From assembly GCF_013315695.1 (NCBI RefSeq), contig NZ_CP054353.1: DNA of 64,000 bases; one strand, written 5' to 3'. The DNA comes from Escherichia coli. Its GTDB lineage: Bacteria; Pseudomonadota; Gammaproteobacteria; Enterobacterales; Enterobacteriaceae. Below are positions 2,652 through 62,862 of this stretch, piece after piece. Numbering within the stretch: position 1 is the stretch's first letter; each line of letters starts with the position of its first letter. The position numbers and the translations under genes were made by a program. The notes beneath the pieces are model-generated. The model did not search any database. It was not told the DNA's origin and worked only from the letters and a program-made list of their open reading frames with translations.

Positions 2652-3098
2652 TTATGAGCTGAGGGTTTGATTTAACAAAGCAAGTACCTGGTCGGCGTCG
2701 CCCTGTCGCAGTTGGTTGATAAAATCCTGGTGGATAATTTTGCGACACAGCGTGCCGATGATTTTGACCTGATCCTCTTCGCCACTTTGCGGCACGCCGA
2801 GGCAGATCCAGCAATTGACGTCTTCGCCGTCGCTGGCTTTCCAGTCAATGGCCTGCGCTTTGCGGGCGAATAACACGAACGGTTGTTTAACGCAGGCGCT
2901 TTTACCGTGCGGCACGGCGACACCGGAACCAAATCCCGTGGAGTGCATTTTTTCGCGCAGCAGCAGGGTTTGCAGGAACTGGTGTGAGTCGGTGATAAAA
3001 CCGTTTTGTAACGCCATTGTCGCCAACTGCTTCAGAACGGAATAAGCGCCATTGCCCTGAATATTCAGGTCAATACAGCTTGCAGTAAGTGCTGCCAT
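2652..3098 (-). CDS. frvA: PTS fructose-like EIIA component FrvA
   Basis: ORF 2652..3227 trimmed to the internal Met (MAALTASCIDLNIQ...) to give 148 aa; operon position. Confidence 0.85.
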   Translation of the reverse strand: MAALTASCIDLNIQGNGAYSVLKQLATMALQNGFITDSHQFLQTLLLREKMHSTGFGSGVAVPHGKSACVKQPFVLFARKAQAIDWKASDGEDVNCWICLGVPQSGEEDQVKIIGTLCRKIIHQDFINQLRQGDADQVLALLNQTLSS

Positions 3099-3574
3099 TA
3101 TTGGATTCCATGAAAAAATATTATAGTTAATTGTAACGGCGGGGCGGTTTTGTGATGAGCGCGGATATGTCGTGAAGTCGTGACAATATAAGGCAGAGTG
3201 AAGGATAAATTTTGCGGTGTAAGGCACATATTGATGGGTAAAATAAATGCAGTGAATAAAAAATCATTATTTAATGATGTTGTGAATGTTTAACTGCCGC
3301 ACATGTTTTGCAGCAAGGTTATTTATATTTGTGGCTTATGAGTCAGCGTGAATTATATCTAATATTTTTTACGATATTTGGTTAAAAACGGCACTATTGT
3401 TATATTCCTCACGTTCCAGGAAATCAGCGGATTTACTCATATTATGCAGCGGGATACTATCCATCGGCCTGCTGAAGTTGGATTAAAAATTCGAAAGTGC
3501 ACACCTTATATTTCTCTATATACGTATTCCTTTTGGAAAGCGTAGGGTCTCTTTTATTTCAGGGAACGTAAATA

Positions 3575-4969
3575 ATGAAAAAATCGACATTATCTTTAGC
3601 CATCGGTTTATTATTGGCATGTAGTACCGGAATGGCAAAAACACAGCATTTAACGCTGGAACAACGCATGGCATTGCTGGAAGAACGCCTGGAAGCGGCA
3701 GAAATGCGGGCAGCAAAAGCAGAGAGCCAGGTTAAACAGCTGCAGACACAACAAGCCGCTGAGATCCGCGAAATTAAGGCTGCCCAGGGCAATACGCCGG
3801 TAAATGGACAGGCAACGGCGGAATCTGCAAAGAAAAATTCCACCTCACCTAATCTTTTGCTCTCAGGTTATGGCGATTTAAAAATCTACGGCGACGTAGA
3901 ATTTAATATGGATGCGGAAAGTAATCATGGCCTGCTGGCAATGACCAACGCTGATGTGAATAGCGATCCCACTAATGAACAGTGGAATCTCAATGGTCGT
4001 ATTTTGTTAGGTTTTGATGGTATGCGAAAACTGGATAATGGCTATTTCGCCGGGTTCTCCGCACAACCGCTGGGGGATATGCACGGTTCAGTAAATATCG
4101 ATGATGCGGTTTTCTTCTTTGGCAAAGAAAACGACTGGAAGGTCAAAGTAGGCCGTTTTGAAGCCTACGATATGTTCCCGCTGAATCAGGATACCTTTGT
4201 TGAACATTCCGGTAATACTGCGAACGATCTTTATGACGATGGCAGCGGTTATATCTATATGATGAAAGAGGGCCGCGGGCGCTCTAACGCTGGCGGTAAT
4301 TTCCTCGTCAGCAAACAACTTGATAACTGGTATTTTGAATTAAACACGTTACTTGAAGACGGAACATCTTTATATAATGACGGTAATTATCATGGACGCG
4401 ATATGGAGCAGCAGAAAAATGTTGCTTATCTGCGTCCGGTAATTGCCTGGTCGCCGACAGAAGAATTCACCGTTTCCGCAGCGATGGAAGCGAACGTGGT
4501 AAATAATGCTTATGGTTATACCGATAGCAAGGGTAATTTTGTCGATCAGTCCGATCGTACCGGCTATGGTATGAGCATGACCTGGAATGGCCTGAAAACG
4601 GATCCGGAAAATGGCGTCGTGGTTAATCTTAATACCGCCTATTTAGATGCTAATAATGAGAAAGATTTCACTGCCGGGATTAACGCGCTGTGGAAACGTT
4701 TCGAGCTGGGTTATATCTACGCGCACAATAAGATTGATGAATTCAGCGGTGTAGTTTGTGATAACGACTGCTGGATTGATGATGAAGGGACGTACACCAT
4801 TCACACCATTCATGCGTCTTATCAGTTCGCTAATGTGATGGATATGGAGAACTTTAATATTTACCTCGGGACGTATTACTCCATTCTGGATAGCGACGGT
4901 GATAAAAAACACGGTGATGATACTGATGACCGTTACGGCGCACGCGTTCGCTTTAAATACTTCTTCTGA
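3575..4969 (+). CDS. Putative carbohydrate-selective outer-membrane porin (ScrY/OprB/LamB-like) with N-terminal coiled-coil extension; absent from the K-12 frvA-rhaM junction
   Basis: 464-aa ORF; signal peptide MKKSTLSLAIGLLLACSTGMA; heptad-like segment LEQRMALLEERLEAAEMRAAKAESQVKQLQ; Gly/Tyr/Asn/Asp-rich body typical of beta-barrels; C-terminus RFKYFF ends in aromatic Phe; locally AT-rich. Confidence 0.5.
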   Translation: MKKSTLSLAIGLLLACSTGMAKTQHLTLEQRMALLEERLEAAEMRAAKAESQVKQLQTQQAAEIREIKAAQGNTPVNGQATAESAKKNSTSPNLLLSGYGDLKIYGDVEFNMDAESNHGLLAMTNADVNSDPTNEQWNLNGRILLGFDGMRKLDNGYFAGFSAQPLGDMHGSVNIDDAVFFFGKENDWKVKVGRFEAYDMFPLNQDTFVEHSGNTANDLYDDGSGYIYMMKEGRGRSNAGGNFLVSKQLDNWYFELNTLLEDGTSLYNDGNYHGRDMEQQKNVAYLRPVIAWSPTEEFTVSAAMEANVVNNAYGYTDSKGNFVDQSDRTGYGMSMTWNGLKTDPENGVVVNLNTAYLDANNEKDFTAGINALWKRFELGYIYAHNKIDEFSGVVCDNDCWIDDEGTYTIHTIHASYQFANVMDMENFNIYLGTYYSILDSDGDKKHGDDTDDRYGARVRFKYFF

Positions 4970-5009
4970 TGAAGGCGCGGTGCTGGATATTTTCCGGCAC
5001 CGCAACTCA

Positions 5010-5324
5010 TTAAGGCAGGTAAAACACTTCTTGCAGCTCGCTACTGACTGGGCTGTTATCCGGGTTAGCTGGCATAACGTCGGTCATATATTTCCACCAA
5101 CGTTGGCAAACATCAGTACTGGCTACCGCATTCCACCGTTCTTCAGATTCAATCTCTACCGTGGCAAACAGCAGATTACGCGCTTTGTCGAGGTAAATGG
5201 CGTAGTTATGTGCACCGTGAGATTTCAACACTGCTTCCAGTTCCGGCCAGATTGGATTATGCCGACGCTGATACTCTTCGTGGGCGTCGGGGTTAACCTG
5301 CATGACAAAGGCTTTGCGGATCAT
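5010..5324 (-). CDS. rhaM: L-rhamnose mutarotase
   Basis: 104-aa [37 protein letters not shown]...; immediately downstream of rhaD. Confidence 0.92.
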
Positions 5325-14942: not shown

Positions 14943-15026
14943 GTAGGCCTGATAAGACGCTATCGGCGTCGCATCAGGCATCCTGCTCAAATGCCGGATG
15001 CGGCGTAAACGCCTTATCCTGCCTAC
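14943..15026. repeat. BIME: two inverted REP palindromic units
   Basis: gtaggcctgataagacgc...gcatcaggc and gccggatgcggcgtaaacgccttatcctgcctac between yiiM and cpxA. Confidence 0.7.
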
Positions 15027-20005: not shown

Positions 20006-20105
20006 GCCTGATGCGCTTCGCTTATCAGGCCTACATGAATTCTGCAATTTATTGAATTTGCAAACTTTTGTAGGCCGGATAAGGCGTTCGCGCCGCATCC
20101 GGCAT
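20006..20105. repeat. BIME/REP cluster downstream of pfkA
   Basis: gcctgatgcgcttcgcttatcaggcctac and gtaggccggataaggcgttcgcgccgcatccggcat; the track ORF 19989..20186 lies across it. Confidence 0.7.
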
Positions 20106-55336: not shown

Positions 55337-57838
55337 TTACAGTTCCAGTTCATGTTGCAGCAGGCTGGCGATAGCGTCGGCAGAGGCGGCGTTAACCAGC
55401 GCGTTACGGAATTCTTCGTGCATGATGCGACGAGCGAGGCGCGAGAAAATGCGCATGTGCTGATCGCCCGCAGCATGTTTGTTCAGGGTTAACATAATGA
55501 TGAATTGCGCTTCATCATCGCCCCAGCGCACCGGCGCTGCCAGACGCGCCACGCTGATGGTGGATTGCTCAATGTGTTCTGATTTGCTGTGGGGAATGGC
55601 AAAACTAAAGCCCAGACCGGTAGAGAAAACGGCCTCGCGCGCCCACAAGTCGGCTTCCAGTTTACGCGGATAGCGACAGCGGCCCGCCAGCAGCAGGTTA
55701 TCGGTCATGCCTTTGAGCACTTCTTCTTTGCTGCGCCAGTCGCTTTCCAGTGTGATGCACTCGGCGGTGACCAGCGGTGCGTCTTGTTGGGTCATGCGGA
55801 ATTGCGCCAGCAGGTGTTCCACTTCCAGCGAAGTACGGCAGGCCATTGCCTGGTTGAGCAACTTGCGGCACTCACGGCTATCAAGTTGCGCCATCCGCGC
55901 TTTCGCCGCCGGAATTGATGGTGCGCTCATGCTGAGTTCATCCAGCCCTAAGCCGACCAGCAACGGCAGCACGGAACCTTTCGCTCCTAGTTCACCGCAC
56001 AGACCAATCCATTTGCCCTGGCGATGCACCGCCTGCACGGCGTAATCGAGCGCCCGCAGGAATGCCGGATTCAGGCTGTTATAGTGACGAGTAACCTTAG
56101 CGTTATCGCGATCCACTGCCAGCAGATATTGCGTCAGGTCATTACTACCAATACTAAAGAAATCAATCTCTTCACAGCATTGATCGATGATGAACATCAC
56201 CGACGGCACTTCCAGCATGATGCCGAGCTGGATTTTCTCATCAAACGGAATGTGTTCGTTACGCAGTTGCTGTTTTGCTTCCGCCAGTTTTTCTTTCACC
56301 CATAAGATCTCTTCCATTGAGGAGATCATCGGGATCATGATTTTCAGGCTGCCGTGAGCGGAGGCACGGAGAATCGACCGTAGTTGTGTGGTAAATAACG
56401 ACGCGTACTCTTCATAAATACGCACGGCGCGATAACCGAGGAACGGGTTTGCCTCTGCGGGAATGTTCAGATAATCAACGGGTTTGTCACCGCCAATATC
56501 CATAGTGCGCACAATAATGCTGCGTCCGTTGGCGGACTCCAGCGCCTGACAAAAAATGTTGTACAGCTCGCTTTCGCCCGGTGCACTGGTGCGATCCATA
56601 TAGAGCATTTCAGTGCGGAATAAACCAACGCCTTCCGCACCATTGCCGAATGCGGCCTGCGCTTCCACGGAGTGAGCGATGTTAGCGGCAATTTCAATGC
56701 GGATACCGTCAGCGGTACGGGCTTGTTGGGTCAGCCAGACACGCTGTTGCTCACGCAGGGCGTCCTGTACGCGGGCTTCTTGCTGATAATAACGGGCCAC
56801 GGCTTCCCCTGGCTCAACCACAATCGCCCCTGCGTTGCCGTCGATATAAATCGTTTGATGCTGCCACGGAGTAAGGGCATCAATATCCACACCTACCAGC
56901 GTCGGAATGTTGAACGAACGGGCAAGGATCACCGTATGTGAGGTGGTGCCGCCACTTTTCAGTAATAGACCTTTGAGGTGACTTTTATCCAGTTCGAGGA
57001 ACTGGCTGGGGGTCAGTTCATCAGCCATACAAATGGCGGGCTGCGTCAGTTTGCCCGGTGCCGGGAAGCGTTGCTCACCGTAGATTTGCTGGAGTAACTG
57101 GAAGCAGACGTCGCGTACGTCCAGAGCACGTTCTTGCAGGTAGCTGCTGCTGGAACGGGCGAACTCTTCGCAAAAGTGATTCGCACTGGCAACAATCGCT
57201 TCGGCGCAGCTTAATCCGGCGCTGACACCTGCCAGTAAATGTTCGCGCAGGGAAGTATCGCCAGCCAGGGATCGGTGCGCTTCCAGAATCGCGCTGGTAG
57301 CACCGTCGCTATCCAGCAGACGAAACTCTATGTTTTTCAGTACCAGCGTCAGACCGTTTTCCAGTGCGGATTGTTCGGCGTCAACGCCTTTGGCTGCGGG
57401 AAGATTACCCAGCGCATTGAGATCTAAAGAAGAGATCGGCGTCAGAATGCCGCCTGCGCTACCGCTGCACACGGTGCGGGCGCGGATAATTTGCGGATTC
57501 AGATTGGTCAGTGAAACCGGCAGTGGTTCCAGTTCGTCAGATTTAACTTCCGCCAGCGGCGCATCGCAGTGGGGGAATTCATCGCGCAGCCATTGGCTTA
57601 AACGCTGGTGCGCTTCCTGTTCGTCGGCCCCGGAAATCAGTAACTGGCAGTTATCGCCCGCCAGCGTGTCGGTGCCAATCAGCGCAAGGGCGCTTTTGGC
57701 GTTGCCCTTGCGGTCAGTGCGCAGGTTATGCCACTCAATTTGTGATGAAAAAGTATTACACAGCGTTTCAACGTGGCTTGCCGGACGCGCATGGACGCCG
57801 TTAGGTAGCTCACAAATAAATTCCACAATCAGGGCCAT
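55337..57838 (-). CDS. ptsA: Multiphosphoryl transfer protein PtsA (EI/HPr/EIIA-like fusion)
   Basis: 833-aa ORF; N-terminal HPr-like segment followed by an enzyme-I-like PEP-utilising domain. Confidence 0.9.
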
Positions 57839-58146
57839 TGCCTTTCTCCCGGTACGGTTTTCTGTTTACAGGATAAGAGCGCACGGTAACGGCCTGCCAT
57901 GTGACAAATCTGCCAAAAGCTGGACAAATGTAATGTAACCGTCAATTTGCGACGCGTCTCACAAGACGCCGTTTTGCGGCATGCTTCCGGATTATCGCAA
58001 GTTATGAGGCGGATCGCATTTTTGTACTGATATTACAAAAGTCCAGTAAATGGCCTTTTTATCCACTGTTTGCTCCGCCTGCGATTGCCTATTGTTTCTT
58101 CCATCAAAAATATGGACATGGGCTTTCGCAAGCCCGGGAGCAGCTT

Positions 58147-58992
58147 ATGAATGAGTTGGTGCAGATCCTGAAAAATACCCGTCAGCATTTAATGACGGGC
58201 GTTTCACACATGATTCCCTTCGTGGTATCGGGCGGTATTTTGCTGGCGGTTTCCGTCATGTTGTATGGCAAAGGCGCAGTGCCGGATGCCGTAGCCGATC
58301 CGAATCTGAAAAAACTGTTTGATATCGGCGTTGCAGGTTTGACGCTGATGGTGCCTTTCCTCGCCGCTTACATCGGTTATTCCATTGCAGAACGTTCTGC
58401 GCTGGCTCCATGCGCTATCGGTGCTTGGGTTGGTAACAGCTTTGGCGCGGGCTTCTTTGGTGCACTGATCGCCGGGATTATCGGCGGCATTGTGGTGCAT
58501 TACCTGAAGAAAATTCCGGTGCATAAAGTTCTGCGCTCGGTGATGCCAATCTTCATCATTCCTATCGTCGGCACACTGATTACCGCTGGCGTCATGATGT
58601 GGGGGCTGGCGACGCTGATTGGTCGTAAAAATTTCTCCGCAGAAGAGCGCGAAACCGGCAAGGCGGCACTGGTGATGGGCTGTGTTGGCGTTACTGAAGG
58701 GGCGATTCCTTTCGCCGCTGCCGATCCGCTGCGTGTTATTCCTTCCATCATGGTCGGTTCAGTTTGTGGTGCAGTAACTGCGGCGCTGGTCGGTGCGCAG
58801 TGCTATGCAGGCTGGGGTGGTCTGATTGTGCTGCCGGTGGTTGAAGGCAAGCTGGGTTATATCGCAGCAGTGGCTGTCGGAGCAGTGGTGACGGCTGTTT
58901 GTGTGAACGTGCTGAAAAGTCTGGCGCGTAAAAATGGGTCTTCGACTGATGAAAAAGAAGACGACCTGGATTTGGATTTTGAAATTAATTAA
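58147..58992 (+). CDS. frwC: PTS fructose-like EIIC component FrwC, internally deleted allele
   Basis: 281-aa ORF; aligns to the FrvB IIC domain in this window but lacks the central segment that includes the AFDMGGP motif; K-12 FrwC remembered as 359 aa. Confidence 0.75.
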   Translation: MNELVQILKNTRQHLMTGVSHMIPFVVSGGILLAVSVMLYGKGAVPDAVADPNLKKLFDIGVAGLTLMVPFLAAYIGYSIAERSALAPCAIGAWVGNSFGAGFFGALIAGIIGGIVVHYLKKIPVHKVLRSVMPIFIIPIVGTLITAGVMMWGLATLIGRKNFSAEERETGKAALVMGCVGVTEGAIPFAAADPLRVIPSIMVGSVCGAVTAALVGAQCYAGWGGLIVLPVVEGKLGYIAAVAVGAVVTAVCVNVLKSLARKNGSSTDEKEDDLDLDFEIN

Positions 58993-59006
58993 TTGAGGAA
59001 CGAGCC

Positions 59007-59327
59007 ATGACGAAAATTATTGCAGTAACCGCGTGTCCATCTGGTGTTGCCCATACCTATATGGCGGCAGAGGCGCTGGAAAGTGCCGCGAAAGCGAAAG
59101 GCTGGGAAGTGAAAGTAGAAACCCAGGGCTCGATTGGTCTGGAAAATGAACTGACTGCGGAAGACGTGGCGAGCGCCGATATGGTGATTCTGACCAAAGA
59201 TATCGGCATCAAGTTTGAAGAGCGTTTTGCTGGCAAGACCATCGTGCGCGTCAACATCAGCGACGCGGTAAAACGCGCTGATGCCATTATGAGCAAAATT
59301 GAAGCTCACCTGGCACAAACCGCTTAA
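59007..59327 (+). CDS. frwB: PTS fructose-like EIIB component FrwB
   Basis: 106-aa ORF MTKIIAVTACPSGVAHTYMAAEALESAAKAKGWEVKVETQGSIG. Confidence 0.93.
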   Translation: MTKIIAVTACPSGVAHTYMAAEALESAAKAKGWEVKVETQGSIGLENELTAEDVASADMVILTKDIGIKFEERFAGKTIVRVNISDAVKRADAIMSKIEAHLAQTA

Positions 59328-59377
59328 GTTCTTATCCCGCCCGTAAGGGCGGGTTCGCTTTCCCACAGGAGTTCCTC

Positions 59378-61675
59378 ATGACGAATCGTATCTCTCGCCT
59401 CAAAACTGCACTGTTTGCCAATACCCGTGAAATCTCGCTGGAGCGGGCGCTGCTTTATACCGCCAGCCATCGGCAAACCGAAGGCGAACCGGTGATATTG
59501 CGCCGGGCGAAAGCAACAGCGTATATCCTTGAACATGTTGAAATTTCGATTCGTGATGAAGAACTGATTGCCGGTAACCGTACGGTGAAACCGCGCGCCG
59601 GAATTATGTCGCCGGAAATGGACCCTTACTGGCTGCTGAAAGAGCTGGATCAATTCCCGACGCGTCCGCAGGACCGCTTTGCTATCAGCGAAGAAGATAA
59701 ACGTATCTACCGCGAAGAGTTGTTCCCGTACTGGGAAAAACGTTCGATGAAAGATTTCATTAACGGGCAGATGACGGATGAAGTAAAAGCCGCGACCAGC
59801 ACGCAGATTTTCAGCATCAACCAGACGGATAAAGGCCAGGGGCACATTATTATTGATTACCCGCGCCTGCTGAATCACGGGCTGGGTGAGCTGGTAGCGC
59901 AAATGCAGCAACATTGTCAGCAACAGCCGGAGAATCACTTTTATCAGGCCGCGTTGTTACTGCTGGAAGCCTCGCAGAAACACATTTTGCGTTACGCCGA
60001 ACTGGCGGAAACGATGGCGGCAAACTGCACAGATGCCCAGCGTCGCAAAGAGCTGCTGACTATTGCGGAGATCTCCCGCCATAACGCGCAACATAAGCCG
60101 CAGACGTTCTGGCAGGCGTGCCAGTTATTCTGGTACATGAACATCATTCTGCAATACGAATCCAACGCCAGTTCGCTGTCTTTAGGGCGCTTCGACCAGT
60201 ATATGTTGCCGTTCTATCAGGTATCATTAACCCAGGGCGAAGATCCGGCGTTCCTGAAAGAACTGCTCGAATCTTTATGGGTGAAATGCAACGACATCGT
60301 GCTGTTGCGCTCCACCAGTAGCGCGCGTTATTTCGCCGGTTTCCCGACCGGCTATACCGCACTGCTCGGCGGGTTAACTGAGAACGGACGTAGCGCGGTG
60401 AACGTACTTTCGTTCCTCTGTCTCGACGCCTATCAAAGTGTGCAATTACCGCAACCGAACCTGGGGGTGCGCACTAACGCCTTGATCGACACGCCGTTCC
60501 TGATGAAAACCGCCGAAACCATTCGCCTTGGCACCGGTATTCCGCAAATCTTCAACGATGAAGTGGTGGTGCCAGCGTTCCTCAACCGTGGCGTTTCGCT
60601 GGAAGATGCACGCGACTATTCCGTAGTGGGCTGTGTGGAATTATCTATTCCCGGCAGAACCTACGGCTTGCATGACATCGCGATGTTTAATCTGCTGAAA
60701 GTGATGGAAATCTGCCTGCATGAAAATGAAGGCAATGCTGCGCTGACTTATGAAGGTTTACTGGAGCAGATCCGCGCCAAGATCAGCCACTACATCACCC
60801 TGATGGTTGAGGGCAGCAATATTTGCGATATCGGTCACCGTGACTGGGCACCTGTACCGCTGCTCTCATCGTTTATCAGCGATTGTCTGGAAAAAGGCCG
60901 CGATATTACCGATGGCGGTGCGCGTTATAACTTCTCCGGCGTACAGGGGATCGGTATCGCCAACCTGAGCGATTCTCTCCATGCGTTGAAAGGTATGGTT
61001 TTTGAGCAACAGCGTTTAAGTTTTGACGAATTGCTGTCGGTATTAAAAGCCAACTTCGCAACGCCAGAAGGCGAAAAAGTCCGTGCTCGCTTAATTAACC
61101 GCTTCGAGAAATACGGTAACGATATCGACGAGGTGGATAACATCAGCGCCGAACTGTTACGCCACTACTGCAAAGAAGTGGAAAAATACCAGAACCCGCG
61201 CGGCGGCTACTTCACGCCGGGATCGTATACCGTTTCTGCTCACGTCCCGTTGGGATCGGTGGTTGGCGCGACGCCAGACGGTCGTTTTGCCGGGGAACAA
61301 CTGGCAGACGGTGGCTTGTCTCCCATGCTGGGCCAGGACGCACAAGGACCAACGGCGGTACTGAAATCAGTCAGCAAGCTCGATAACACGCTGCTTTCTA
61401 ACGGTACGTTGCTGAACGTGAAATTCACTCCGGCGACCCTGGAAGGTGAAGCGGGATTACGCAAACTGGCTGACTTCTTACGGGCATTTACCCAGCTTAA
61501 GTTACAACACATTCAGTTTAACGTGGTGAACGCCGACACGTTGCGGGAAGCGCAACAGCGCCCACAAGATTATGCCGGGCTGGTGGTGCGCGTTGCCGGA
61601 TACAGCGCCTTCTTTGTCGAACTGTCGAAGGAGATCCAGGATGACATCATCCGCCGGACAGCGCATCAGCTGTAA
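59378..61675 (+). CDS. pflD: Pyruvate-formate-lyase-like glycyl radical enzyme PflD
   Basis: 765-aa ORF; glycyl-radical motif near the C-terminus (VVRVAGYSAFFVEL). Confidence 0.94.
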   Translation: MTNRISRLKTALFANTREISLERALLYTASHRQTEGEPVILRRAKATAYILEHVEISIRDEELIAGNRTVKPRAGIMSPEMDPYWLLKELDQFPTRPQDRFAISEEDKRIYREELFPYWEKRSMKDFINGQMTDEVKAATSTQIFSINQTDKGQGHIIIDYPRLLNHGLGELVAQMQQHCQQQPENHFYQAALLLLEASQKHILRYAELAETMAANCTDAQRRKELLTIAEISRHNAQHKPQTFWQACQLFWYMNIILQYESNASSLSLGRFDQYMLPFYQVSLTQGEDPAFLKELLESLWVKCNDIVLLRSTSSARYFAGFPTGYTALLGGLTENGRSAVNVLSFLCLDAYQSVQLPQPNLGVRTNALIDTPFLMKTAETIRLGTGIPQIFNDEVVVPAFLNRGVSLEDARDYSVVGCVELSIPGRTYGLHDIAMFNLLKVMEICLHENEGNAALTYEGLLEQIRAKISHYITLMVEGSNICDIGHRDWAPVPLLSSFISDCLEKGRDITDGGARYNFSGVQGIGIANLSDSLHALKGMVFEQQRLSFDELLSVLKANFATPEGEKVRARLINRFEKYGNDIDEVDNISAELLRHYCKEVEKYQNPRGGYFTPGSYTVSAHVPLGSVVGATPDGRFAGEQLADGGLSPMLGQDAQGPTAVLKSVSKLDNTLLSNGTLLNVKFTPATLEGEAGLRKLADFLRAFTQLKLQHIQFNVVNADTLREAQQRPQDYAGLVVRVAGYSAFFVELSKEIQDDIIRRTAHQL

Positions 61676-62519
61676 CGTTGTGGAAACGCGCCGCGATGAT
61701 GTGGCGCGCATTTTCAACATTCAGCGTTATTCACTGAATGACGGCGAGGGCATTCGTACGGTGGTCTTTTTTAAAGGCTGTCCGCATCTTTGCCCGTGGT
61801 GTGCTAATCCGGAGTCGATCTCCGGCAAAATCCAGACGGTACGCAGAGAGGCGAAATGTCTGCACTGTGCGAAATGTTTGCGTGATGCGGATGAATGCCC
61901 GTCCGGGGCGTTTGAACGGATTGGTCGCGATATCAGCCTTGACGCGCTGGAACGGGAAGTGATGAAAGATGACATTTTCTTTCGCACGTCCGGCGGCGGC
62001 GTCACGCTTTCTGGCGGCGAAGTGTTAATGCAGGCGGAGTTTGCTACCCGTTTTTTACAGCGGCTTCGGTTGTGGGGTGTGTCATGCGCCATCGAAACTG
62101 CCGGAGACGCGCCGACCAGCAAGTTGTTACCGCTGGCGAAATTGTGCGATGAAGTGTTGTTCGATTTAAAAATTATGGACGCGACTCAGGCGCGGGATGT
62201 GGTGAAGATGAACCTGCCACGCGTGCTGGAGAATCTGCGTTTGCTGATTAGTGAGGGCGTCAACGTGATCCCGCGTTTACCGCTGATCCCTGGTTTCACG
62301 CTCAGCCGGGAGAATATGCAGCAGGCGCTGGACGTGCTGATCCCGCTGAATATCAGGCAGATCCATCTGTTACCGTTTCATCAGTACGGCGAACCGAAAT
62401 ACCGCCTGCTGGGGAAAACATGGTCGATGAAAGAGGTGTCTGCGCCGTCGTCAGCCGATGTGACAACGATGCGCGAAATGGCAGAACGGGCCGGATTTCA
62501 GGTTACCGTGGGAGGTTAA
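61641..62519 (+). CDS. pflC: Glycyl-radical-enzyme activating enzyme PflC (radical SAM)
   Basis: ORF 61572..62519; start at MTSSAGQRISCNVVETRRDD for 292 aa; CPHLCPWCANPE radical-SAM motif; overlaps pflD 3' end. Confidence 0.92.
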   Translation: MTSSAGQRISCNVVETRRDDVARIFNIQRYSLNDGEGIRTVVFFKGCPHLCPWCANPESISGKIQTVRREAKCLHCAKCLRDADECPSGAFERIGRDISLDALEREVMKDDIFFRTSGGGVTLSGGEVLMQAEFATRFLQRLRLWGVSCAIETAGDAPTSKLLPLAKLCDEVLFDLKIMDATQARDVVKMNLPRVLENLRLLISEGVNVIPRLPLIPGFTLSRENMQQALDVLIPLNIRQIHLLPFHQYGEPKYRLLGKTWSMKEVSAPSSADVTTMREMAERAGFQVTVGG

Positions 62520-62520
62520 A

Positions 62521-62862
62521 ATGGCATACCTGGTGGCAGTAACCGCCTGCGTAAGCGGCGTGGCGCATACTTATATGGCGGCGGAACGGCTGGAAAAGTT
62601 GTGCCTGTTAGAGAAGTGGGGCGTCAGCATTGAAACTCAGGGCGCGCTGGGAACGGAGAATCGTTTAGCGGACGAGGATATCCGTCGGGCGGATGTTGCG
62701 CTGTTAATTACGGATATCGAGCTTGCCGGTGCTGAGCGATTTGAACATTGCCGCTATGTGCAATGCAGCATCTACGCTTTCCTGCGTGAGCCGCAGCGGG
62801 TGATGAGCGCGGTGCGCAAAGTGCTTTCTGCGCCGCAGCAAACCCATCTTATTCTGGAGTAG
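62521..62862 (+). CDS. frwD: PTS fructose-like EIIB component FrwD
   Basis: 113-aa ORF MAYLVAVTACVSGVAHTYMAAERLEKL. Confidence 0.92.
   Translation: MAYLVAVTACVSGVAHTYMAAERLEKLCLLEKWGVSIETQGALGTENRLADEDIRRADVALLITDIELAGAERFEHCRYVQCSIYAFLREPQRVMSAVRKVLSAPQQTHLILE

Follow-up and report, generated by a model that had tools for sequence, protein, structure and literature searches.

The Escherichia coli DNA analyzed here (a single stretch of 64 kb, referred to below as the window) carries a 464-codon open reading frame (ORF) between frvA and rhaM, which are direct neighbors in K-12, 300 bp apart. An earlier note on this DNA had taken the ORF for a dedicated porin that, divergently linked to the cryptic frv operon, completes a frv uptake pathway and whose specificity could point to the frv substrate. 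The question raised by the locus is whether the gene is a partner of frv or a sugar porin in its own right. The layout given in that note holds, including the adjacency of frvA and rhaM in K-12, the coordinates of the ORF, and the AT-rich character of the spacer between frvA and the ORF (3099 to 3574; 35.7% G+C), which measures 476 bp and not 475 bp. The ORF itself has a G+C content of 44.9%, versus 51.8% for the entire window. Features are listed in Table 1.

Table 1. Features of the frvA-rhaM interval, with window coordinates
Feature	Position	Strand	Basis or detail
frvA	2652-3098	-	Upstream neighbor of the porin ORF
frvA-proximal 149 bp, about 91% shared with porin-less K-12	3099..3247	.	Alignment
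Segment missing from K-12-type genomes, 1761 bp (porin gene plus 327 bp upstream)	3248..5008	.	blastn and local alignment
CRP-like site TGTTATATTCCTCACG, TGTGA-N6-TCACA with 2 mismatches	3398..3413	+	Conserved upstream motif
Candidate sigma-70 promoter P1	3432..3460	+	-35 TTTACT 3432-3437, 17-bp spacer, -10 TACTAT 3455-3460
Alternative promoter candidate	3483-3488 TTAAAA / 3507-3512 TATATT	+	Consensus scan
Predicted leader hairpin, 28-61 nt upstream of ATG	3514..3547	+	RNAfold -10.1 kcal/mol, z -2.3
Porin gene, 464 aa plus stop	3575..4969	+	ORF with ATG; Pfam match; RefSeq annotation
Signal peptide, residues 1-21, MKKSTLSLAIGLLLACSTGMA, predicted cut before K22	3575..3637	+	Read from sequence
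Periplasmic coiled coil, ScrY type ("Sugarporin_N"), residues 28-70	3656..3784	+	Heptads, models, PF11471
Beta-barrel, residues 100-464, modeled with 16 strands	3872..4966	+	C-terminal signal ...RVRFKYFF
Long loop joining strands 5 and 6 (residues 195-240)	4157..4294	+	Model and homologue alignment
G+C-rich inverted repeat GCGGTGCTGG-ATATTTT-CCGGCACCGC	4977..5003	.	Read from sequence; 40-bp porin/rhaM gap
rhaM	5010-5324	-	Downstream neighbor, convergent with the porin gene

The gene is already known. It is annotated in RefSeq as "carbohydrate porin" (WP_000749944.1), it belongs to a described family, and it was given the name rafY2 in the O157:H7 literature, where the paper's remarks on the chromosomal gene record its presence and nothing further (PMC4809568). 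The ORF is no chance reading frame, because it has a full-length Pfam match, is found intact and full length in 2557 complete E. coli genomes, and shows a dN/dS of 0.05 between alleles with a dS of 0.09 to 0.21; the gene is maintained by purifying selection. The four E. coli alleles that were compared all remain intact, and the sole indel among them is in frame and amounts to exactly one heptad of the coiled coil, missing from the Nissle 1917 allele. A search with the protein matched none of the NCBIfam family models, and a search of Rfam with positions 3000 to 5100 at an E value of ≤1 returned nothing credible.

The ORF codes for a glycoporin of the RafY family (PF16966, Porin_8; TCDB 1.B.15), here encoded on the chromosome. 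Residues 104 to 464 match the entire Pfam model (positions 1 to 372 of 372; E value, 3.7e-154; bit score, 513.7), all 30 aligned homologues match it as well, and the traits of the family are present, namely, a signal peptide and an outer membrane β-barrel, for which the family prediction is 16 strands. The ScrY/OprB architecture proposed earlier therefore stands in part: the protein is a sugar porin with a ScrY-type coiled coil, but its barrel is that of the RafY family and neither that of LamB/ScrY nor that of OprB. The Pfam comparison with sugar-porin families, suggested earlier as a check, returned PF16966 and a marginal PF11471. Assignment to the LamB/ScrY barrel was rejected, as PF02264 gave no match even at an E value of ≤10 and 16 rather than 18 strands are modeled; assignment to OprB was likewise rejected, with no match to PF04966 and a structural score lower than those of the general porins. 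ScrY and LamB (TCDB 1.B.3) do resemble the porin in providing an outer membrane route for oligosaccharides, and ScrY has the same kind of coiled coil (PF11471). Searches of the PDB with the single protein and with a 30-sequence profile returned no ScrY or LamB sequence and only chance or coiled-coil matches, so the family is without a solved relative. The best structural matches of the barrel model are classical 16-stranded porins, among them the trimeric OprP, PorB, Omp32, Omp-Pst1, VhChiP, OmpU, and Acinetobacter baumannii DcaP, to which amino acid identity is 8 to 14%; in contrast to these, the porin has no Porin_1 or Porin_4 Pfam match and has a barrel of 365 residues, larger than theirs and with longer loops. 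The RafY family is small, comprising 308 clusters at the 50% identity level in a set of 1.84 billion representatives.

Several parts of the protein were anticipated in the earlier note, and the signal peptide, the heptad coiled coil, the Gly/Tyr/Asn/Asp-rich body ending in RFKYFF, and the β-barrel were all recovered. The signal peptide was recognized by eye, without a predictor, from the KK of its n-region, a hydrophobic core, and G-M-A in the c-region; homologues do not conserve the cysteine at residue 16, which makes a lipoprotein signal unlikely. Hydrophobic residues at 28, 32, 35, 39, 42, 46, 49, 53, and 56 follow the 3-4 spacing of heptads, and residues 28 to 70 form one helix in both AlphaFold models. 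The match to PF11471 is weak in the porin itself (E value, 0.06; residues 27 to 54), and among the 30 homologues it reaches an E value of ≤1e-3 in 13 and of ≤0.1 in 29, the best being 6.9e-7. By these matches the segment is homologous to the ScrY-type N-terminal extension; its motif LEQR..LE.RL..AE.RA is invariant in the aligned homologues. The body of the protein is 10.6% D, 10.1% G, 9.8% N, and 6.5% Y, and at its C terminus hydrophobic residues alternate up to the terminal F. A first AlphaFold run with 30 close homologues was poor (pLDDT, 64.8) and was superseded by one with a more diverse alignment, in which the fold class is modeled as a 16-stranded β-barrel with a periplasmic coiled coil. 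The loop at residues 195 to 240 is the best-conserved stretch of the family, with much invariant sequence (FEAYDMFPLNQDTF...GYIYMMKEGRGR), and its position in the model matches that of the L3 constriction loop of classical porins; it probably lines the channel as a constriction loop.

RafY is described as the porin of the plasmid-borne raffinose operon rafRABD-Y of the pRSD2 type (Ulmke et al. 1997 and Andersen et al. 1998, cited through PMC4809568 and PMC4827864). RafY was represented here by the porin encoded behind rafR-rafA-rafB-rafD on plasmid p1002-4 and not by the pRSD2 sequence itself; the order of LacI-type regulator, α-galactosidase, major facilitator superfamily (MFS) transporter, GH32 enzyme, and porin on IncF plasmids is the published rafRABD-Y order (PMC4809568). 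This plasmid porin is the closest relative among the sampled sequences, sharing PF16966, the length of 464 amino acids, 78% amino acid identity, the N-terminal LEQRMALLEERLE coiled coil, and the C-terminal RFKYFF. The two genes nevertheless differ by a dS of 0.94, and the porin described here is chromosomal, at a fixed site beside rhaM, without rafRABD in the window, where homologues of RafA, RafB, and RafD were searched for and none was found. The plasmid rafD-rafY spacer aligns with the chromosomal upstream region only at the ribosome-binding site. In a neighbor-joining tree of 80 loci, out of 202 genomic relatives, the genes beside rhaM group in a single clade, and the chromosomal gene of E. 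coli has plasmid RafY as its sister. Linkage to raf genes is a trait of the founding member and not of the Pfam family. Paralogues are preceded by MFS or GPH symporters and GH32, GH78, or GH3 enzymes or trehalase, and none of the paralogue loci has frv genes or places the porin in an operon with a phosphotransferase system (PTS). A LacI-permease-hydrolase-porin type of operon has been demonstrated experimentally for GlyR/GlyP of Klebsiella pneumoniae, in which GlyP is a secondary porin normally kept low and its raised expression alters carbohydrate competitiveness (bioRxiv 10.64898/2026.03.29.715108). GlyP is of the RafY family, and its operon type resembles the LacI/MFS/GH32/porin paralogue loci found here; it differs in belonging to a paralogous clade, about 60% identical to the porin, and in ending a LacI-repressed operon, whereas the porin stands alone behind its own upstream region.

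That region has conserved elements of its own. In an otherwise 47%-identical alignment of 16 chromosomal orthologue upstream regions and one plasmid rafY upstream region, TGTTATATTCCTCACG forms invariant columns. In 28 of the 34 orthologue loci, a single match to the pattern TGTTANNTNNNTCACG, always on the plus strand, precedes the porin start, at about 176 to 240 bp in most and at 726 bp in one (L059), and none of the paralogue loci has the pattern; the motif is thus conserved at orthologue loci. Its likeness to a CRP site suggests CRP control of the gene, with the reservation that one of the two mismatches is the important G of TGTGA and that the bare CRP pattern is no more frequent in the window than chance predicts (30 found versus 26.6 expected). 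Conservation extends to the blocks TTTAC and TGATAnTAT, which keep the spacing of P1; a start from P1, near 3467, would place the CRP-like site at about -61.5. A consensus promoter scan yielded 3 promoter-like sites, versus 4.9 in shuffles, and missed P1, so it is conservation that argues for this promoter. The leader hairpin is followed by the pyrimidine-rich CTCTTTTATTTCAGGGAA with the ribosome-binding site, and per-sequence folding placed a hairpin with other stem sequences at the same position in about 23 of 29 other chromosomal loci; RNAalifold found no consensus structure on the MAFFT leader alignment, in which the variable stems are out of register. An operator-like sequence for RafR (CCGAAACGTTTCGG, queried as the twin operator of the plasmid rafR-rafA spacer) was not found upstream of the porin, and comparison of this region with the rest of the window, including the rha promoters, returned only chance 11- to 13-mers. 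H-NS could silence the AT-rich region and so leave the gene cryptic in laboratory culture. Beyond the gene, the inverted repeat is a candidate terminator common to porin and rhaM, although it has no adjoining T-run and is absent from the output of a terminator scan.

These data bear on the possibility that the gene is a relic, all that is left of a chromosomal raf cluster, unexpressed and without a present function in E. coli. The absence of raf genes from the window, the AT-rich upstream region (36% G+C), and the loss of the porin from half of E. coli, in one strain through IS1, would suit such a relic, which we nonetheless consider unlikely, given the low dN/dS at a dS of up to 0.21, the four intact alleles with their in-frame, one-heptad indel, the full-length gene in 2557 genomes, and the conservation across genera of the upstream motif and the ribosome-binding region.

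Synteny was sampled in 34 other species, with one orthologue locus each. The constant neighbor is rhaM, which lies downstream in 30 species and within 700 bp in 24. Upstream, frvA is found in 13, and neither frv nor raf genes are found in 14. Genes of the raf set (with rafA nearby) are located within 10 kb of the orthologue in 9. Klebsiella, Raoultella, and Enterobacter have rafR-rafA-rafB immediately upstream and in the same orientation. The position beside rhaM, at the end of rhaBADM, could tie the porin to the use of rhamnose or rhamnosides, and one group of paralogues does follow an AraC-type regulator, an MFS transporter, and a GH78 α-L-rhamnosidase. We regard such a role as very improbable: porin and rhaM are convergent, so they cannot be cotranscribed; the porin upstream region does not resemble the rha promoters of the window; rhaBADM occurs without the porin in half of the E. 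coli genomes; and in several species a GntR/PTS-IIC/GH4 cluster or raf genes are inserted between porin and rhaM. In addition, L-rhamnose is a monosaccharide, which general porins admit.

The relation to frv can be judged among 5426 complete E. coli genomes, frvB being present in 4191. Both frv and porin occur in 1378 genomes, the porin with frv deleted in about 1166, and frv without the porin in about 2824, which carry the K-12 150-bp allele. The porin is thus found in about 33% of frv-positive and about 95% of frv-negative genomes and is present versus absent in 47% versus 52% of E. coli. Loss of frvRXBA is a clean 4.8-kb deletion, as in the type strain ATCC 11775 and Nissle 1917. At the K-12 junction, 150 bp of unrelated sequence takes the place of the missing segment; it holds no porin remnant, and a simple deletion scar was rejected for this allele. 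The frvA-proximal 149 bp, which porin-less K-12 also has, is presumably the frv promoter region, separate from the conserved porin elements (3398 to 3460), which lie at least 300 bp from frvA and within the segment that K-12 lacks. In the other species, frvA is adjacent and divergent in 5 of the 34 representatives, 18 of the 34 loci lack frv and have 6 kb or more of sequence upstream, and the loci with frv usually have azlCD and a regulator gene between it and the porin. A search of the literature on frv function and on the chromosomal porin found nothing beyond PMC4809568.

The porin's distribution is therefore uncorrelated with frv in both samples, an outcome named in advance as one that would refute the link, and the link fails this test. 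That the porin is dedicated to the frv PTS operon through a shared divergent control region, forming one complete uptake pathway, is hardly credible: it has in its favor the divergent adjacency here, in 1378 E. coli genomes, and in 5 species, and the fact that frv, annotated only as "putative," has no established substrate, but against it stand an intact porin under purifying selection in the 1166 genomes with the frvRXBA deletion, frv kept without the porin in 2824, the species loci and paralogue loci without frv, and the apparent separation of the two control regions. The inference from the porin to the frv substrate should be dropped. We infer that the gene came to lie beside frvA by chance, through gene loss at the locus; the conserved neighbor is rhaM.

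The gene is most likely a stand-alone chromosomal RafY-family glycoporin with its own upstream region and not a partner of frv. The protein would be exported by Sec and cleaved after A21. Residues from about 28 to 70 would form a ScrY-type periplasmic coiled coil, presumably holding a trimer together, and residues from about 100 to 464 a 16-stranded barrel, with the long conserved loop after strand 5 probably lining the channel. By analogy with plasmid RafY, the channel would be wide and would lack a saturable binding site for sugars; substrates from disaccharides to oligosaccharides (raffinose, sucrose, and maltodextrins), a range extrapolated from the 78%-identical protein, would cross the outer membrane through it and feed whichever inner membrane sugar symporter the strain has. 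Expression would be driven from the gene's own conserved upstream region through a probable CRP site and promoter. As for the history of the locus, the raf cluster upstream of the orthologue in Klebsiella, Raoultella, and Enterobacter suggests that only the porin was kept in E. coli. A further step, which we put forward tentatively as possible rather than probable, is that the rhaM-adjacent site is the ancestral chromosomal raffinose locus of Escherichia, Citrobacter, and Klebsiella, that the Escherichia-lineage copy gave rise to plasmid rafY, and that the surviving gene encodes a scavenging porin under CRP control, so that strains with and without it differ in their access to oligosaccharides from the diet.

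As a discovery the gene has little value, being an ordinary, already annotated gene for an outer membrane sugar channel. It belongs, however, to a small family without a solved structure, and the three-way polymorphism of E. coli (frv and porin, porin only, and frv only) offers a possible natural experiment on a RafY-type porin in the gut. Secondary porins of the RafY family have recently been tied to fitness in porin-deficient, carbapenem-resistant Klebsiella. If the rhaM-adjacent site is indeed the ancestral raffinose locus, the porin could, by analogy with GlyP of K. pneumoniae, alter fitness and permeability upon loss of the major porins.

The gene between frvA and rhaM, immediate neighbours with 300 bp between them in K-12 MG1655, is the single long ORF there in the six-frame ORF list and is named "carbohydrate porin" on the identical RefSeq chromosome. 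As the earlier note had described in outline, it lies behind an AT-rich spacer and encodes 464 amino acids with a legible Sec-type signal peptide (MKKSTLSLAIGLLLACSTGMA, followed by K), heptads (hydrophobic positions at unbroken 3-4 spacing from residue 28 to 56), a D/G/N/Y-rich body, and a C terminus ending in RVRFKYFF. The G+C content of the ORF is 44.9%, compared with 51.8% for the window.

Features of the porin locus and of other parts of the window
Feature	Position	Strand	Basis or remark
frvA	2652-3098	-	Annotation of identical RefSeq chromosome
frvA-porin spacer	3099-3574		476 bp, 35.7% G+C
frvA-proximal 149 bp	3099-3247		Common to porin-less K-12
Spacer part CGGTGTAAGGCACATATTGATGGGTAAAATAAATGCAG	3215-3252		~38 bp, absent from B2 alleles
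Porin segment	3248-5008		1,761 bp; 150 unrelated bp instead in K-12
Invariant block TGTTAnnTnnnTCACG	3398-3413	+	Upstream alignment of 16 orthologues and plasmid rafY
Candidate -35, TTTACT	3432-3437	+	Conserved block
Candidate -10, TACTAT	3455-3460	+	Conserved block
Other promoter candidate	3483-3512		Promoter scan
Leader hairpin	3514-3547		About 28-61 nt upstream of porin start
Porin ORF	3575-4969	+	ATG, 464 aa
CxxxC pair	4757-4771		Residues 395 and 399
rhaM	5010-5324	-	Annotation of identical RefSeq chromosome
naRNA4 (REP derived)	14946-15023	-	Rfam match above gathering score
ES036 sRNA	20027-20068	-	Rfam match above gathering score
ClpQY (hslVU) promoter element	35157-35214	-	Rfam match above gathering score
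L31 ribosomal protein leader	39826-39878	+	Rfam match above gathering score
FrvA and FrvB paralogues	55346-62775		29-49% identity; presumably frw/ptsA cluster

The porin belongs to the RafY family, as seen in its profile match, its identity to the founder, and its predicted topology. Residues 104 to 464 match the whole Porin_8 model (PF16966, "Porin-like glycoporin RafY"; E value, 3.7e-154), a sugar-porin family. The LamB and OprB barrel families in Pfam were not matched, nor was any NCBIfam model, and a PDB sequence search returned no match. The family is small: a RafY-family profile found only 308 clusters at an E value of ≤1e-3 among 1.84 billion cluster representatives, and the coiled coil is missing from many of the full-length members. 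Residues 27 to 54 match Sugarporin_N (PF11471) weakly (E value, 0.06); when 30 aligned homologues were scanned singly, 13 matched at ≤1e-3 and 29 at ≤0.1, so the coiled coil is homologous to the ScrY-type N-terminal extension.

An AlphaFold2 model from an alignment of 30 close homologues was mediocre (pLDDT, 64.8). A second model, from a 50-sequence alignment including full-length members without the coiled coil (pLDDT, 82.6; pTM, 0.73), has one helix at residues 28 to 70, a disordered linker at 71 to 97, and a beta-barrel of 16 strands, strands 5 and 6 being joined by a 46-residue loop (195 to 240) that holds much of the invariant sequence of the family. The predicted architecture is thus a ScrY-like stalk on a classical-porin-like barrel; the LamB/ScrY family, in contrast, has 18 strands. 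Of the ScrY/OprB architecture originally proposed, the sugar porin with a ScrY-type coiled coil stands, but the barrel is of neither the LamB/ScrY nor the OprB type. The CxxxC pair, found almost without exception in the family, may form a disulfide; the model places it in a loop joining strands 13 and 14, where confidence is lower.

The gene is already annotated and already mentioned in the literature. Plasmids, those of the IncF type among them, carry a porin 78% identical to this one downstream of genes for a LacI-type regulator, an alpha-galactosidase, an MFS permease, and a GH32 hydrolase, the gene order of the published raffinose operon rafRABD-Y (PMC4809568). E. coli O157:H7 lacks rafRABD, yet has a rafY homologue annotated rafY2 (PMC4809568), which is the porin of the window (97.8% nucleotide identity). 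RafY constitutes TCDB family 1.B.15, with 16 predicted strands (PMC4827864). In a neighbor-joining tree of 82 sequences, plasmid RafY clusters with the chromosomal gene of Escherichia, which suggests that it is of chromosomal origin.

The earlier note had proposed a porin dedicated to the frv operon, and it is this link that would have been interesting about the gene. Distribution both within E. coli and across genera contradicts it. Among 5,426 complete E. coli genomes, 2,557 carry the full-length porin gene and 4,191 carry frvB; 1,378 have the frvA-porin junction of the window, 1,166 have lost frv, with a truncated yiiG abutting the porin spacer on its upstream side, and 2,824 are of the porin-less K-12 type, with 150 bp between frvA and rhaM. 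Since these counts agree (1,378 + 1,166 with 2,557, and 1,378 + 2,824 with 4,191, approximately), the porin is present in ~33% of frv-positive and ~95% of frv-negative genomes. The frv-deleted group, which includes the type strain ATCC 11775, Nissle 1917, and APEC O2:K1, shows in alignment a clean 4.8-kb deletion, with endpoints at the 3' end of yiiG and 18 bp before the frvA start, which takes out frvR, frvX, frvB, and frvA and leaves the porin upstream region whole. With the FrvA and FrvB paralogues towards its far end, the window holds two cryptic fructose-like PTS loci.

The K-12 sequence in place of the porin segment (positions 4474 to 4623 of the K-12 locus) is unrelated to it, so the alleles represent a replacement rather than a simple deletion; this 150-bp sequence occurs at 80-90% identity in 688 genomes. 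The B2 spacer (locus L086, gap at ~245-265) is only ~88% identical to that of the window. In E. coli HS30-1 (locus positions 1788 to 2577), IS1A occupies the place of yiiG, frvRXBA, and the porin gene except for its last 75 nt, a separate, IS-associated loss of frv and porin.

Scanning one genome per species yielded 202 relatives, and 80 loci were kept, 34 of which fall in one neighbor-joining clade with the window gene. Downstream, a convergent rhaM is found in 30 of these 34 orthologous loci (within 700 bp in 24). Upstream, frvA lies within 10 kb in 13 and is the direct neighbour in only 5; 18 of the loci with ≥6 kb of sequence upstream lack it. Nine have rafA within 10 kb, and Klebsiella spallanzanii, K. 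grimontii, Raoultella terrigena, and Enterobacter sp. JUb54 have the order rafR-rafA-rafB (with a LacA-like acetyltransferase)-porin-rhaM, recorded as co-directional throughout. In most Citrobacter and Kluyvera loci, the gene immediately upstream encodes an XRE/cupin regulator beside azlCD. The most parsimonious history for the sampled genera has an ancestral porin gene adjoining rhaM, the raf genes, azlCD with its regulator, and frv as variable upstream occupants, and the K-12-type (porin lost) and B2-type (frv lost) alleles as both derived. A further variable cassette at this hotspot, encoding a GntR regulator, a PTS cellobiose-type IIC, and a GH4 6-phospho-glucosidase, adjoins the porin upstream or downstream in eight loci (L011, L012, L023, L025, L027, L029, L033, and L044) and lies between porin and rhaM in five.

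The dN/dS of the window gene is 0.050 versus the O157:H7 allele (dS, 0.09), 0.050-0.051 versus B2 alleles (dS, 0.21), 0.045 versus Kluyvera (dS, 2.4), and 0.14 versus plasmid RafY (dS, 0.94). The Nissle allele has lost in frame exactly seven residues, 31 to 37 (RMALLEE), one heptad, so that the coiled-coil register is preserved. Low dN/dS and this loss indicate a maintained, functional protein, also in lineages without frv. The dS of 0.21 seems high for E. coli, and frvB falls into identity classes of 90-95% and 95-99%; old or imported alleles seem to be present at the locus.

Across the upstream alignment, which takes in 16 chromosomal orthologues and a plasmid rafY, identity averages only 47%. 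Downstream of the invariant TGTTAnnTnnnTCACG block, TTTAC and TAnTAT-like sequences are conserved at the spacing of a promoter, as is, further on, a ribosome-binding region. Upstream of the porin start, the exact TGTTAnnTnnnTCACG pattern is present a single time, on the plus strand, in 28 of the 34 orthologous loci, about 176-240 bp away in most (726 bp in locus L059), in all four E. coli alleles examined, and in none of the paralogous loci; in two Citrobacter loci it is replaced by TCACA. The block is the CRP consensus with two mismatches, and such matches are not above chance in the window. With the candidate -35 and -10 elements, we infer that this CRP-like site would be centred near -61.5, a spacing found in class I CRP promoters. 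Neither a RafR-operator-like sequence upstream of the porin nor similarity of this region to the rha promoters was found.

The position of the leader hairpin is kept in most orthologous loci (L006 to L036), but with widely differing stems: C. braakii has CGTCTTCCG/CGGAAGACG and Kluyvera has TGAAACCC/GGGTTTCA. Next to it, on the porin side, comes a pyrimidine-rich stretch. RNAalifold on an unregistered leader alignment found no structure. Possible roles of the hairpin are 5' stabilisation, attenuation, or termination for the genes upstream.

frv is never present in the 46 paralogous loci. There the porin gene typically follows genes for a LacY-type MFS permease and a GH32 enzyme behind a LacI regulator, for a GPH symporter beside a periplasmic trehalase, sometimes with a GH3 enzyme, or for an MFS permease and a GH78 rhamnosidase. 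The glyR-glyP operon of K. pneumoniae is the counterpart of the LacI/permease/hydrolase/porin type; derepressing the glyP porin alone in an ompK35/36 mutant gave a fitness gain (bioRxiv 10.64898/2026.03.29.715108). For a Salmonella homologue (58% identity), lactulose induction has been reported. RafY-family members thus partner with proton or cation symporters and glycosidases, not with PTS systems. By analogy with RafY, the porin most likely forms a wide channel through which di- to oligosaccharides cross the outer membrane, raising flux to whichever inner-membrane symporter is present; it is probably expressed when catabolite repression is relieved.
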